From: a virus
Lineage: Duplodnaviria; Heunggongvirae; Uroviricota; Caudoviricetes
Length of the DNA: 40,719 nt
Strand: one strand, 5' to 3'
IMG/VR virus record: IMGVR_UViG_2734482569_000014
Part shown: positions 2,207 to 7,716 of the stretch, piece after piece
Numbering within the stretch: the stretch's first letter is position 1
How the letters are laid out: every line of letters begins with the position of its first letter
Translations under genes and position numbers: made by a program
The notes under the pieces: generated by a model
What the model was told of the DNA's origin: nothing
The model's input: only the letters and a program-made list of their open reading frames with translations
Database searches by the model: none

Positions 2207-2544
2207 CAGATCACCACTTCGTCAAACTGACACGAAAAATCGGTATAGGTGATATGTTCTGTCGCTGACCACGTTCGACACACCACTCTGATTTTTCTGT
2301 TAATACCCGGCGGGCGCCAAAAAAAAGATTTATAGCCTTCATGCCGGGCTAAAAATTTTTCAAATGAATCACGTTCATTCGCCTCAACTTTGAAATCACA
2401 GGTGAAAACGCGCAGAGAATGATTAAGTCCATTTGGACTTCGTTGCTCATAACCATCACCAAATCTTACAGTTTTTATCGATGGTTTATTTTCTGTTTTC
2501 ATTCCATCCTCTGGTAACCAGTGAAATTCTTCCGTATTAGCCAC
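2206..2544 (-). CDS. M: Minor tail protein M
   Basis: 112 aa, lambda gpM-like (VRFGDGY...FEVVI-type ending); synteny between H and L. Confidence 0.75.
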
Positions 2545-5500
2545 TTAACATTCCCCCATCACGTCGCATATTTAACAGATTGCCCTGCACCCGCTGATCA
2601 ACCATCCCCATAAGTGCTTTTATTGCCTGAGGGCCAATCTCTCCATTCTGGCCGTCATTTTGAATAGTGATTTGGTATACAGGGGCATAGGTAATATCTC
2701 CGCCTCCATTACCACTTTTACTATTAATAGCTCTGACACCAAGAGAACCATCGGAAGTTCGTGTTAATGGCATAATGGCTTCCGGTCCAGCCTCACCAAA
2801 AACACCAGCCCCTTTTGCAAAAGCAAAAAATTGCGGGGAATCATAAATACCGTTCGAATACGTGCTCAATGACGGAGACTCATAAACACCGCCCTTTGCA
2901 TTCGGAATAAATTTACTAATAGCACTCCCGATAGTTCCTAAAATCCCCCCAGAAGAACTGTTACTAATGCTGTCGAAAATCCCAGTAATTGAAGCCTTTA
3001 ATGCTATTCGACTAAGATCCGAAATCACGGAAGTAGCGAAAGAACGAAAATTTGCCTTGCCTGTCGTGACAAAATCACCCAGCGCATCGGTCATCCCATC
3101 AAACATCTGAGTCGTGGTTGATTTTATCTGCTCACTGATATCCTTAGTGTCATCCAGCCAGTTATTGAATCCCTGGGAGGCACCACTAACCCAGTCTCCT
3201 GCCTGAATATCGAGCTGCTCGTTTTTCTGTCTGACAATTTCTTTTTCCCGTTCCAGAGCATCATTCAGAGCCTGCATTTTCTCTTGAAAAACATGATCTG
3301 ACATTCCACGGGATTTATCTGCATAGTCACGTTCAAGTTGCAGACGCTGATTGTTATATCCATGTTCAATCCGCAGTAATTCCTGCTGGCGTTGCTGATT
3401 TTTATCGCCAACCCCATAACCAGCAATCTGAATATCATACCCCTGCTGACGATTATCAATCGAAGCCTGCAATGAATCACGCCATGCTGTTATTTCGGCG
3501 GATTCCTTGATTAGCCTGTTATTTTTTTCAATCGCAACATTTTTCTCCATCAACGTGGTTATTTCTTCCCGGTGTAAGAGAAGCGATTTCTGATCCTGGG
3601 TTAATTTCGATGATGGTCGTGACTCTAGGTCGGCAATCCGCTGACGCCACTTAACCAGTTCCTGTTCAGAGGAACTTAATTTAACGGTCAACTCAGCTTG
3701 TGAACTTAGTAACGCATTCTGTTGATTCAGATGATCAATCATTCGTTGGGCTGCATCATCAGAATAACCTTTCGCCTTTGGTTGCTTTGGATCTTTATAA
3801 CGCTCATTTATTTGAGCGATAAGATTATTATATTCTTCCTTTGAATACTGATTCTTTAGCTTTTCCAGTTTTGCAAGTTCACTAGCTCTCTGCTGCTCCC
3901 GGGTCTGATATTGTTTTGAAAAGGCATCTGCTCTCTGTCTGAGTTCAATTCCTTCCTGTTGTCGCTTGTTGTAATCGTTTATTGATGAATTTAGTACGTC
4001 CTGAGCAATTTTTTCTGCTTGAAGTACGCCCAATTGCTGCTTTAATCGTGCCAGCCTTTTATTTTGAGCTCCGCCATCTCCAATGCCACCTAACCCGAAA
4101 ACTCCGGGTCGGGTATTTTTTTCTATTTCATCAATTTGACGGAGAACATCTGAGATTTTTTGATCAAGGGAGGCCTCACGGCCAATATCCAGCATGGAAT
4201 CCCATGCCCATTTTGCGGAGTCTGCGACAGCTTTCCATGCAGTCTCAAGATAACCAAGATTTTCTTTAATCTGGTTGGTGCGCTGGATCATTGAGGATGA
4301 GTATTCTTCTGTCGCAATGCGGGCGGCCTCCTGCTGGTTCCCTTCATCCTGTAGCGCCTTAATCTGGTTATAAGTCGCAAGTGTCAGAAAATGGTACTGA
4401 TCATTAAGTTTTGATATGGCACTGACAGGATCCTTTGCAATTTCATTGAAGTCATTAACCAGTTGTTCGGTTGATATTCCTGTTACTTCGCTCGTTTTTA
4501 CTATCGCTGTCGTCACTTGCTCCAGCGAACTGCTCGCTACCTTTCCCGAACGCACAAGCTGATTTAATACTGCCGCCGCAGCACCAGTTGTCGAATCAGC
4601 CGCATTCCCGGCACGTTGAGCTATATCGCCCAATTGCCCGCTGGTTGTCCCCAACTGATTTCCGGTAAGAATAAGAGATTTATTAAATTCGTCCTGCTCC
4701 TGAGAGCCTTTATAGTAAGCCAGTCCTAAGACCCCAACGGCTGCTGCGGCCAGGGTAAAAGGATTAATTAATCCCAGCACATAAGAACCTACACCTTTGA
4801 TCGCCGGGCCAATCCCACCGAACATATCTTTTAGCTGGCCGCCCTGCTGCATTAACACCATAAATGGCGACTGACCAGTGGACAACCCAACAACAATATC
4901 CGTCATTTGTACAGGCAACATGCGCATAGCAAAAGCCGTTTGTTTTGCCGACATTCCGGTTTTGCTTAATTGTGATTGAGTAACCTCAAGCTCACTCCGC
5001 ATAGCACGAAGTTTTCCAGAAAGCTCCTCATACATTTCAGGAGAAAGCATCCCCTTAGCTTTTGCTTCATTGAGCTGTTTCTGTTGTTCTACCAGACGAT
5101 TAAAAGCAGTTCCGACAGGATCAAGTTGAGCAATCAGACGTTGCAAAGCAACAACCTGTTCATCATGCGCTTTTGCTGCTTCTCGCTCTGCCTGAGCCTC
5201 TCCGGTAAGCTCTCGCCGTGTTTCCTGTATTTTTCGGCTATAATTCTCAAACTGAGAACCATTTATTTTCCCGGATGCAAACGCAGCATTAAGTTCATCA
5301 TGCTGTTGTTCAAGATTTCTTAGCGCCGCAGCCAGAGGGTCGATCTTGTCCAGCATTCTTTGAAAGGCCTGAGCCTGCGCTTCCTGCTGGGCGGCAGCAA
5401 GTTTTCCGGCCTTCTCGGCTTCTCTCTGCGCTTGCGCAACCCCGCTCAATTCCTCTGTGGTTTCATTAAGTTTACGGACAAGAAATTCATATTCTTCTTT

Positions 5501-5770
5501 ATCAATAAGCCCTTTATCGAAAAATTTCTTTAATTCAGAATAGCGTCGACCGACAGTATCAATTGCGGCACCAACTGGATCAATAGCTGCTTTTAATTTT
5601 GCGAGCGCGTTCTTCTCATCTTCTGTTGCCTTAGTCACTTTCCCTGCGCTATTTGCAGCAGTTTCCCCAGCCTGCGTCATTTTGACTAATGAGGAGGTCA
5701 GATTGTCAGCATTATTTTTCGCTCCAGTGCTATCAATAATTATTGCGAGACGCGAGGTTTGCTCTGCCAT
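2537..5770 (-). CDS. H: Tail tape measure protein
   Basis: 1077 aa, long coiled-coil-rich protein with hydrophobic glycine-rich central segment; position between chaperone G/GT and M. Confidence 0.9.
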
Positions 5771-5790: not shown

Positions 5791-5815
5791 AAAAAACCCA
5801 CCGCGAAGTGGGTTT
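5791..5815 (-). terminator. Terminator-like GC hairpin with U-tract between GT and tape measure gene
   Basis: Minus-strand RNA reads AAACCCAC-UUCGCG-GUGGGUUUUUUG immediately upstream of the H ribosome binding site. Confidence 0.3.
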
Positions 5816-5935
5816 CAGGCGACATAATAGTAGATATAGCGATTACGAGGCCACGCAATGCTTTTCTCCAGGAGCATCATCGATTTAATTAAAGACACCA
5901 TCACATCTCTGTAACAGAGTGTACGTAATTAACAA

Positions 5936-6256
5936 CTACACACACTGCTCCTGAAAATACTGGTCATCCAGTGCAAAGATCACTGCTTCAAATTCATCGC
6001 GCTCAATCAATACCGGATGAGTGGCTAAATATTCATTTATCTCTGTCAGAGATAAAGGCAAAGGCACCCCAGCCATTCCAGCATAACGTCGGGCACGGGA
6101 TATTACCGAATAGGCGTACAACAACTCCTTAAGCACCGGGTCTATTTCTGGTTCCGGTATCGGTGGCAACCTGAGTTTTTCTCGCTTCCATCTTGCCTTT
6201 TCCCCCCTTTCTCCCCCGAACTCCGATAACCACCGCTGGGCAGCTATGGCTTTTTT
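5936..6256 (-). CDS. T-frame extension of tail assembly chaperone (C-terminal part of the GT -1 frameshift fusion)
   Basis: ORF 5936..6169 is in the -1 frame relative to G; reading that frame from the slippery site gives an open frame KKAIAAQRWLSEFGGERGEKARWKREKLR that runs into MPPIPEPEID...; canonical G/GT arrangement upstream of the tape measure gene. Confidence 0.6.
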   Translation of the reverse strand, partial: KKAIAAQRWLSEFGGERGEKARWKREKLRLPPIPEPEIDPVLKELLYAYSVISRARRYAGMAGVPLPLSLTEINEYLATHPVLIERDEFEAVIFALDDQYFQEQCV

Positions 6257-6705
6257 ATCGTATCCTGCTTCTGCTGCTCTTTACCCTGGGCGATGCTGGC
6301 TGCTTCTGCAAGGATCTGCCAGTACAACTCTGGATTCTGCTTAAGCAGCGCGATCCCTCGTTCTGCCGTATATTCCAGTGCAACCTCAACACCATTAACC
6401 AGTTCACCAACCCCTTTCCAGTCTTTCAGCAGATAACGAGCGGCATTATCAATGAGTAAATCATCAACAGAATCCACCTCGGAAACCTTTGAAATATCAA
6501 ACTCCTTCGTTCCGACGTGCAAACTGGCATCCATTTTCTCAATGTGGCGACGGATTAATGCATTACGGGAGCGATACTGATCGTTATCGCTGCTTGCCAC
6601 CAACAGTTTTAACCCGTCTACAGGTTTTAAGTCCTTCATTGGCGTAAACCAGCGTTCTCCACCAATGATAATTTTCTGATTAAGAATAAACATCCATAAC
6701 CTCAT
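6244..6705 (-). CDS. G: Tail assembly chaperone G
   Basis: 153 aa acidic protein immediately upstream of the tape measure gene; ends ...QKQDTIKKP with the slippery heptamer two codons before the stop. Confidence 0.7.
   Translation of the reverse strand: MRLWMFILNQKIIIGGERWFTPMKDLKPVDGLKLLVASSDNDQYRSRNALIRRHIEKMDASLHVGTKEFDISKVSEVDSVDDLLIDNAARYLLKDWKGVGELVNGVEVALEYTAERGIALLKQNPELYWQILAEAASIAQGKEQQKQDTIKKP
6250..6256 (-). promoter_or_regulatory. Programmed -1 ribosomal frameshift slippery heptamer A_AAA_AAG (G to GT)
   Basis: Minus-strand mRNA ...GAU ACG AUA AAA AAG CCA UAG; heptamer identical to the dnaX-type slippery site; the -1 frame is open into the T ORF. Confidence 0.6.
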
Positions 6706-6753: not shown

Positions 6754-7716
6754 TCAACTAATCGCCTCAGCACTGGCTTTTGCGATCACGGCAGCCGGGG
6801 AATTTTTTTTTCTGGTTATCGTAGGTGCTTCATCTGCTGCGGTAATGCTCAATTGAACCTGGATAATGTCGCTATTACCCCCATCAGGCCATTCACCTGA
6901 CACCTGAACCTTCGGGAAACTGAAAGTGTATGCCCCCTCTCCATTCGAAAGCGTGAAGCTGAACGGAACTGTTTCTCCAGTCAGTGTTTTACTCCAGATT
7001 TCCCACGCGGCTTTAGACCATGAAAGCGTCACCGTACCGGACGGTGTAAAAGTAGTCGGAATATTTGCTCCTGCATAAGGCGAGCCAGTCCCGATACAAC
7101 GCTGTGTCTGGAGTTTGTTATCGAACTGAATATCAAAACTGTCGATACAAAAACCGTTACCTCCGGCAACACCATTCAGGCTTACTGCTGAAACCTCCTT
7201 AAACGAATAACGTAGCTTTCCTGCACTATCCACAGGTTCGCCTTTGATAAAATTCGTATCATCGGCCTTTGATTCCCAGTCCAGTCCGGCAAAGGTTACG
7301 GTCGCTGTAATATCGCCGTCGTTAGGGATCTGCATTTTCCATGAGCCAACCTGCGCTCCTCTGACGACAGAGGCAATTCCGACATCGGACGCATAGGTCG
7401 CCAGAGAAAATGTTATTCGCTCATTCCCCATTGTCAGAGAATCGCCTGACCATTCCGCGCCGAAACAGGATGCAAGAAAATCATCATGTTGACCCCAGCG
7501 AAATTTGGTACCAACATCACCGCCGACATCCACAGTGCCAGGCGTCGCCCCCTGAGCCATCCGGGAGCCACCAATCTCATTATTTTCGCCTTTATTCTGG
7601 GTGGGTTTTACTCCCCAGCTTGTGCGTTTTAATAAACTCCAGTCACCACTTGCTGGCGTAGTGCCTGCAACCGTCTCCCGGATAAATGCCGAGATAACCT
7701 TTGCACCTGAACTCAC
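6754..7716 (-). CDS. Major tail (tube) protein, probably with C-terminal Ig-like extension
   Basis: 320 aa, located directly upstream of the G/GT chaperone; Ser/Thr/Gly-rich beta-type sequence; assignment by synteny and composition. Confidence 0.7.
   Translation of the reverse strand: MSSGAKVISAFIRETVAGTTPASGDWSLLKRTSWGVKPTQNKGENNEIGGSRMAQGATPGTVDVGGDVGTKFRWGQHDDFLASCFGAEWSGDSLTMGNERITFSLATYASDVGIASVVRGAQVGSWKMQIPNDGDITATVTFAGLDWESKADDTNFIKGEPVDSAGKLRYSFKEVSAVSLNGVAGGNGFCIDSFDIQFDNKLQTQRCIGTGSPYAGANIPTTFTPSGTVTLSWSKAAWEIWSKTLTGETVPFSFTLSNGEGAYTFSFPKVQVSGEWPDGGNSDIIQVQLSITAADEAPTITRKKNSPAAVIAKASAEAIS

Follow-up and report, generated by a model that had tools for sequence, protein, structure and literature searches.

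The heptamer A_AAA_AAG close to the end of gene G in the window (the whole stretch of viral DNA analysed, 40,719 nt) is very probably a programmed -1 ribosomal frameshift site of the tail assembly chaperone G/GT type, where two tRNA-Lys would slip in tandem. Most ribosomes translating G (6693..6244, minus strand) would read AAA AAG CCA and end at the UAG codon to give the 149-aa G protein, while a minority, carrying tRNA-Lys in both the P and A sites on A_AAA_AAG, would slip back one base, re-pair on AAA AAA and take GCC as the next codon in the -1 frame. Translation of 104 further -1 codons would then produce a 252-aa GT protein (about 28 kDa) with the predicted junction ...DTIKK-AIAAQRW.... 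By analogy with phage lambda, the G part may bind the tape measure protein and the T part may recruit the tube protein, with a large excess of G over GT presumably needed for tail assembly. The features of the region are as follows.

6754..7716, minus strand: tail tube (major tail) gene, directly upstream of G (Pfam Phage_tube_2, E 9.4e-32)

6244..6693, minus strand: gene G, tail assembly chaperone of the YdaY family, 149 aa plus UAG (PHROG 313 and homologue alignment)

6263..6266, minus strand: AGGA, candidate Shine-Dalgarno-like stimulator, 6 nt 5' of the heptamer (-10..-7)

6250..6256, minus strand: slippery heptamer A_AAA_AAG, formed by the codons AAA (6255-6253) and AAG (6252-6250) and the preceding A of ATA (6256)

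6244..6246, minus strand: UAG stop codon of G, separated from the heptamer by CCA alone

5936..6250, minus strand: T segment, running in the -1 frame of G for 104 codons plus stop (conservation, wobble periodicity and phrog_1189)

2537..5770, minus strand: tape measure gene, next downstream (Pfam TMP_2, E 3.9e-81; Tape_meas_lam_C, E 3.9e-26)

From 6267 to 6244 the minus strand reads CAG GAT ACG ATA AAA AAG CCA TAG, preceded by an AAG codon, and A_AAA_AAG (6256..6250) lies in the X_XXY_YYZ phase of the ORF 6705/6693..6244. The initial annotation had described this heptamer as standing two codons before the stop of G in the context AUA AAA AAG CCA UAG, which is exactly what the minus strand contains. 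It had also taken the -1 frame to be open into a listed 77-aa ORF (5936..6169). Translated from 6256, this frame (KKAIAAQRWLSEFGGERGEKARWKREKLRLPPIPEPEIDPV...DDQYFQEQCV*) begins with KKAIAAQRW and remains open for 104 codons until its first stop at 5938..5936 (QEQCV*), and the 77-aa ORF is in frame with it. The proposed reading as a G/GT-type -1 frameshift is further backed by gene order, the match of G to a PHROG chaperone profile and strong comparative evidence. The bare motif is not rare, as the window contains 21 copies of AAAAAAG where 14.9 +/- 3.7 are expected, and the significance of the site thus rests on its position, phase and conservation. Only the copy at 6256..6250 combines 150 upstream codons in phase, a 0-frame stop within three codons and a -1 frame of 104 codons. 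Each of the other 20 copies in the window lacks at least one of three features: correct phase, a long ORF upstream and a long ORF in the -1 frame.

G matches PHROG 313 ('Tail assembly chaperone') with an E-value of 4.9e-46 over profile positions 15-149 of 258. The gene likely starts at ATG 6693, which has GAGG 6 nt 5' and from which the homologues align (Met of MFILNQ...), while the upstream ATG 6705 is less probable. No family match was obtained for G in local Pfam and NCBIfam, and a PDB profile search using the G alignment gave no match; in a large protein database, Pfam PF27119 is attached to all G homologues. The AlphaFold model of G, built from a 15-sequence alignment, has a mean pLDDT of 49 and is too poor for a fold test.

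The T segment matches phrog_1189 (E 1.4e-36), weakly matches PHROG 313 at profile positions 173-246, and shows a sub-threshold match only to Pfam Phage_TAC_18, which is seen in 4 of 12 relatives. When G up to ...TIKK is fused in silico to AIAAQ..., the resulting GT protein follows PHROG 313 collinearly and in one piece from position 20 to 246 of 258 and scores 174 bits, compared with 158 bits for G alone; some members of PHROG 313 evidently carry both halves within one sequence. All the genes concerned lie on the minus strand in the order tube, G, T frame and tape measure.

The T stop is separated from the tape measure ATG by 165 nt, which contain a strong terminator-like hairpin (GAAACCCAC-TTCG-CGGTGGGTTTT, followed by TTGTTG; 5793..5816, minus strand). 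Ahead of the hairpin lies a possible ORF of 28 codons (ATGGTGTCTTTAATTAAATCG...TGA; 5815..5901, minus strand), whose stop overlaps it. Both are odd for the interior of a late tail operon, and together they may represent a tiny moron or the remnant of one. In relatives the same slot holds one to four extra small genes, as in Klebsiella phage ST846-OXA48phi9.2 (L101, 2327..3313) and Pseudomonas phages Aurca01 (L097, 2225..3562) and phiPSA1 (L100, 772..1236), and it looks like a variable insertion site.

For comparison, 14 loci were taken from contigs representing one genome per species and 80 from IMG/VR, along with several annotated phages. In 99 loci, which comprise 52 distinct sequences, a shift site that ends in AAG occupies the same codon, and almost all of these loci contain A_AAA_AAG. 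They come from Escherichia, Shigella, Salmonella, Citrobacter, Klebsiella, Raoultella, Siccibacter, Pantoea, Scandinavium, Dryocola and Entomohabitans. In 20 diverged enterobacterial relatives, heptamer positions 4-7 (AAAG) never vary and the sole departures from A_AAA_AAG are swaps to G_GGA_AAG, which is found in one Raoultella locus (L011) and one Pantoea locus (L013). This swap is a coordinated triple change from AAA to GGG, which replaces Lys by Gly and keeps the canonical slippery pattern. G_GGA_AAG also occupies the aligned position in Acinetobacter phage TCUAN1, a distant relative with about 32% identity.

The selective constraint on the sequence changes frame at the heptamer. Among 20 diverged sequences, the mean pairwise divergence at codon positions 1, 2 and 3 is 0.15, 0.10 and 0.44 over the 81 nt upstream (0 frame), and 0.23, 0.19 and 0.47 over the 81 nt downstream (-1 frame). 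The third-position variability thus moves from the 0 frame to the -1 frame at this point, which is the signature expected for a recoding site. The protein sequence encoded by the -1 frame is conserved from the first residue past the site (A[IL]xAQxW...), where W7 and K18 are invariant in all 12 aligned sequences, including phages at 31-38% identity. The 0 frame is unconstrained beyond the heptamer, as its stop drifts and lies 0, 1, 7, 25 or 35 codons past the heptamer in different relatives; the UAG, whose position is not conserved among them, is consequently not a required part of the signal. In a group of loci about 91% identical (L077-L083, IMG/VR, ~3440..3550), the G stop TAG is replaced by TTG and the 0 frame runs 35 codons beyond the heptamer and overlaps the T frame, with heptamer and T unchanged. 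A 183-aa protein from Salmonella Brandenburg (P0005) may be compared with this group.

The frame switch bears directly on a reading implicit in GenBank and RefSeq, in which T would be an independent small gene initiated at an internal TTG, GTG or ATG and the heptamer a coincidental pair of Lys codons. Public records do call short ORFs of 41-66 aa in the T stretch, AAGGAG is located just 5' of the TTG codons at 6124 and 6121, and AAAAAAG is common in the window. However, the -1 frame of the window contains no ATG, GTG or TTG from its upstream stop to codon +27, and in relatives the first possible start varies between +30, +38, +40, +48 and +58, with two loci (L016 and L084) offering only the ATG at +58. 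The stretch of 27-58 residues ahead of the first start is nevertheless conserved as protein with -1-frame wobble periodicity. A chance Lys-Lys pair is likewise at odds with an AAAG core that is invariant, and with variation in the 20 enterobacterial relatives that is confined to a coordinated slippery swap. The shift of constraint between frames also counts against both an independent T gene and a chance Lys-Lys pair, and this reading is therefore considered very unlikely. We infer that the T segment is translated only as the C-terminal extension of GT.

The swapped heptamers are also informative on transcriptional slippage, in which RNA polymerase would slip on the A6 run so that a fraction of the mRNAs gains one A, with no slippage of the ribosome. 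Such slippage is employed by some bacterial and phage genes (PMC5009743), and a homopolymeric A6 run is present inside the site. This run is, however, shorter than the runs of at least 8 A/T that have been tied to transcriptional realignment (PMC3711429). In addition, L011, L013 and TCUAN1, where G_GGA_AAG offers only A3 and G3 runs, have the same two-frame architecture, so that the replacements keep the tRNA re-pairing pattern and not the homopolymer length. There is accordingly very little probability that the polymerase, and not the ribosome, produces the shift.

A third explanation is that a frameshift mutation in a prophage that had become defective divided an ancestral single G-T ORF into two, without functional recoding. 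The element is mostly known from prophages, the Rac copy of E. coli K-12 is clearly a remnant, and rare single-frame G-T fusions (P0009) occur in databases. The fusion is, however, explained by a secondary event and does not reflect the ancestral condition. Just 5' of the heptamer, GCAGAAGCAG occurs twice on the minus strand as a direct repeat of 10 nt, at 6309..6300 and 6274..6265, 35 nt apart. P0009, a 240-aa E. coli protein with 5 member sequences, corresponds to what is encoded after a 35-bp deletion from one copy to the other, which places G and T permanently in one frame (...AEAGYDKKAIAAQRW...). The split is the same in frame and position across many genera and is also found in phages deposited as isolates (SPF_0923, Gungnir39, phiPSA1 and TCUAN1), while each frame is under purifying selection on its own side of the heptamer. 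Decay, against which the frame-switch signature counts as well, is hence highly improbable, and programmed frameshifting by the ribosome is the preferred reading.

The putative shift would operate with little help from RNA structure. The 141 nt around the site are no more stable than shuffled sequence (z = +0.82), no conserved downstream structure was detected in 12 diverged relatives (consensus fold -3.46 kcal/mol, negligible covariation), and a scan of Rfam at a permissive E-value returned noise only, with no match to a frameshift element. The composite dnaX element is thus absent, and the term 'dnaX-type' used in the initial annotation fits the heptamer only: it holds for neither the downstream stem-loop, nor an Rfam element match, nor the length of the product, which is longer and not shorter.

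Two short elements may serve as weak stimulators, as judged from their conservation. AGGA is present at -10..-7 in 16 of 18 distinct upstream sequences, and its G at the third, synonymous position of the CAG/AAG codon is kept in 16/16. The search of Sharma et al. (PMC4066793) for stimulatory Shine-Dalgarno-like sequences covered spacings of 6-17 nt 5' of the motif, which places the AGGA spacing of 6 nt, unusually short, at the edge of the known range. The second element is the dinucleotide CC directly 3' of the heptamer, found in 14 of the 18 sequences; in E. coli, no other 3' dinucleotide makes A_AAA_AAG as shift-prone (Atkins review, PMC5009743).

Frameshifting values for E. coli given in the supplement of Sharma et al. 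2014 (PMC4066793) are 0.29% for A_AAA_AAG and 0.28% for G_GGA_AAG when unstimulated, 4.3% and 3.8% with the IS911 stimulator, and 39% and 43% with the IS3 stimulator, respectively. As the two heptamers are practically equal, the swap between them is functionally neutral for frameshifting. The efficiency at the site is probably low and lambda-like, in the per-cent range, because no strong stimulator is present, and the yield of GT could be low given the value of about 0.3% for unstimulated A_AAA_AAG in one reporter.

Non-canonical sites are found at the same codon in more distant phages. Erwinia phage Gungnir39 (L098, 1986..1995) contains C_GCA_AAG with UAA directly after it, while Pseudomonas phages Aurca01 (L097, 1887..1893) and phiPSA1 (L100, 434..440), at about 32% identity, contain G_GAA_AAG followed by CCA; the latter two also have AAA_AAA_G 27 nt upstream of the aligned site. 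These sites may use single-tRNA slippage on A_AAG. The sites at this fixed codon therefore include A_AAA_AAG, G_GGA_AAG, G_GAA_AAG (Pseudomonas phages) and C_GCA_AAG-UAA (Erwinia phage), and it may be suggested, quite tentatively, that the YdaY-type chaperones constitute a natural series of minimal, structure-free frameshift signals. If the non-canonical sites do slip by a single tRNA, and if AGGA and CC set the ratio of G to GT, the family would exemplify structure-free tuning of this ratio.

The element belongs to the Rac-like lambdoid prophage type of E. coli. A region of 1.1 kb shows 100% identity to Salmonella phage SPF_0923 and about 98% to several E. coli phages. Of 5426 complete E. coli genomes, 1075 contain this region; the 61 nt surrounding the site are found in 1066 of the 5426 (~20%) and are identical in 758. 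The RefSeq name of the gene is ydaY. Among the GenBank and RefSeq records inspected, none is annotated with ribosomal slippage; these records call G together with a short 'hypothetical protein' of 41-66 aa, or with nothing, for the T stretch. A literature search combining ydaY with frameshifting or tails returned nothing relevant, and Xu et al. 2004 or Gurvich et al. 2003 might list the Rac/ydaY site.

In intact prophages, RefSeq ydaY encodes 119 aa from the internal ATG 6603 (L103, 1698..2057) and not from 6693. Since the homologues are conserved from ATG 6693, with I3, I8, R14, W15 and P18 invariant, the RefSeq start is 30 codons too late, and was apparently modelled on the truncated K-12 gene. 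In the Rac remnant of K-12 MG1655 (L102, 2249..2852), ydaY is truncated at its 5' end and adjoins ynaK (ParB/Srx N-terminal domain) and ynaA, while the shift site and the entire T frame survive in an unannotated stretch of about 470 nt from ydaY to ynaA. Databases also contain chimeric ParB-YdaY proteins (P0043).

The family of ydaY, a gene with no assigned function in E. coli K-12, can thus be identified as supplying the G half of a tail assembly chaperone, while the unannotated stretch or short 'hypothetical protein' 3' of ydaY would be its T half, reached by the -1 frameshift. The main value of the analysis is this correction of annotation for the ydaY family; besides E. coli, the site is found in relatives from many Enterobacterales. 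The sequence family is new and had not been annotated, while the mechanism and the heptamer are already known and no new mechanism is added.

As to known systems, dnaX contains the identical heptamer A_AAA_AAG and a purine-rich Shine-Dalgarno-like element upstream, for which the window offers a candidate. In dnaX this element is AGGGAG, located 10 nt upstream, from which the candidate AGGA of the window, present in 16 of 18 sequences, differs in both spacing (6 nt) and strength. A_AAA_AAG is decoded by a single E. coli tRNA-Lys (PMC5009743). Frameshifting in dnaX involves two stimulators, one of which is a stable downstream stem-loop, reaches about 50% and gives a shorter product (PMC3711429), whereas the window has no conserved structure, no Rfam match and a longer predicted product.

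The initial annotation had set the lysine-type heptamer of the window apart from the G_GGA_AAG of lambda. A_AAA_AAG is indeed present, but it has already been reported among tail chaperone genes and is not unusual: AAAAAAG is listed for VT1-Sakai, psiM2, PVL, PV83, ul36 and a Borrelia prophage (Xu et al. 2004, as cited in PMC3483164), and is found in Paenibacillus phages (PMC6003738). A close parallel is ECs1801 of Sp9 in E. coli O157 Sakai, which shares host species, heptamer and gene order with the window and has its site just before UAG (GCC AGA AAA AAG TAG). Its cluster, A_AAA_AAG_25, is marked as true in Table S4 of Sharma et al. 2014 (PMC4066793), and no match to 'ydaY' was obtained among the clusters found in that supplement. 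Membership of ECs_1801 in the same family as the window G was ruled out, as no BLASTP alignment was obtained.

In long-tailed phages the G/GT frameshift is textbook knowledge (Levin, Hendrix and Casjens 1993; Xu, Hendrix and Duda 2004, 2013, 2014; reviewed in PMC5009743), and in lambda the ratio of G to GT is about 30:1 (PMC5009743). Neither G nor T of the window shows similarity to its lambda counterpart in profile comparisons by hhalign (probability ~0.1% for G and 0.06% for T). The window also differs from lambda in its heptamer A_AAA_AAG, in its stop one codon past the site compared with five in lambda, and in the spacing of T and the tape measure gene, which lie 165 nt apart with a terminator-like hairpin in the interval, whereas lambda T overlaps H. 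The architecture is nonetheless that of lambda: two overlapping ORFs lie between the major tail and tape measure genes, a -1 shift leads, or in the window would lead, to a longer fusion protein, and no strong RNA stimulator is involved. The lambda site reads GCG GGA AAG TGT..., and some relatives of the window G carry lambda's own G_GGA_AAG.
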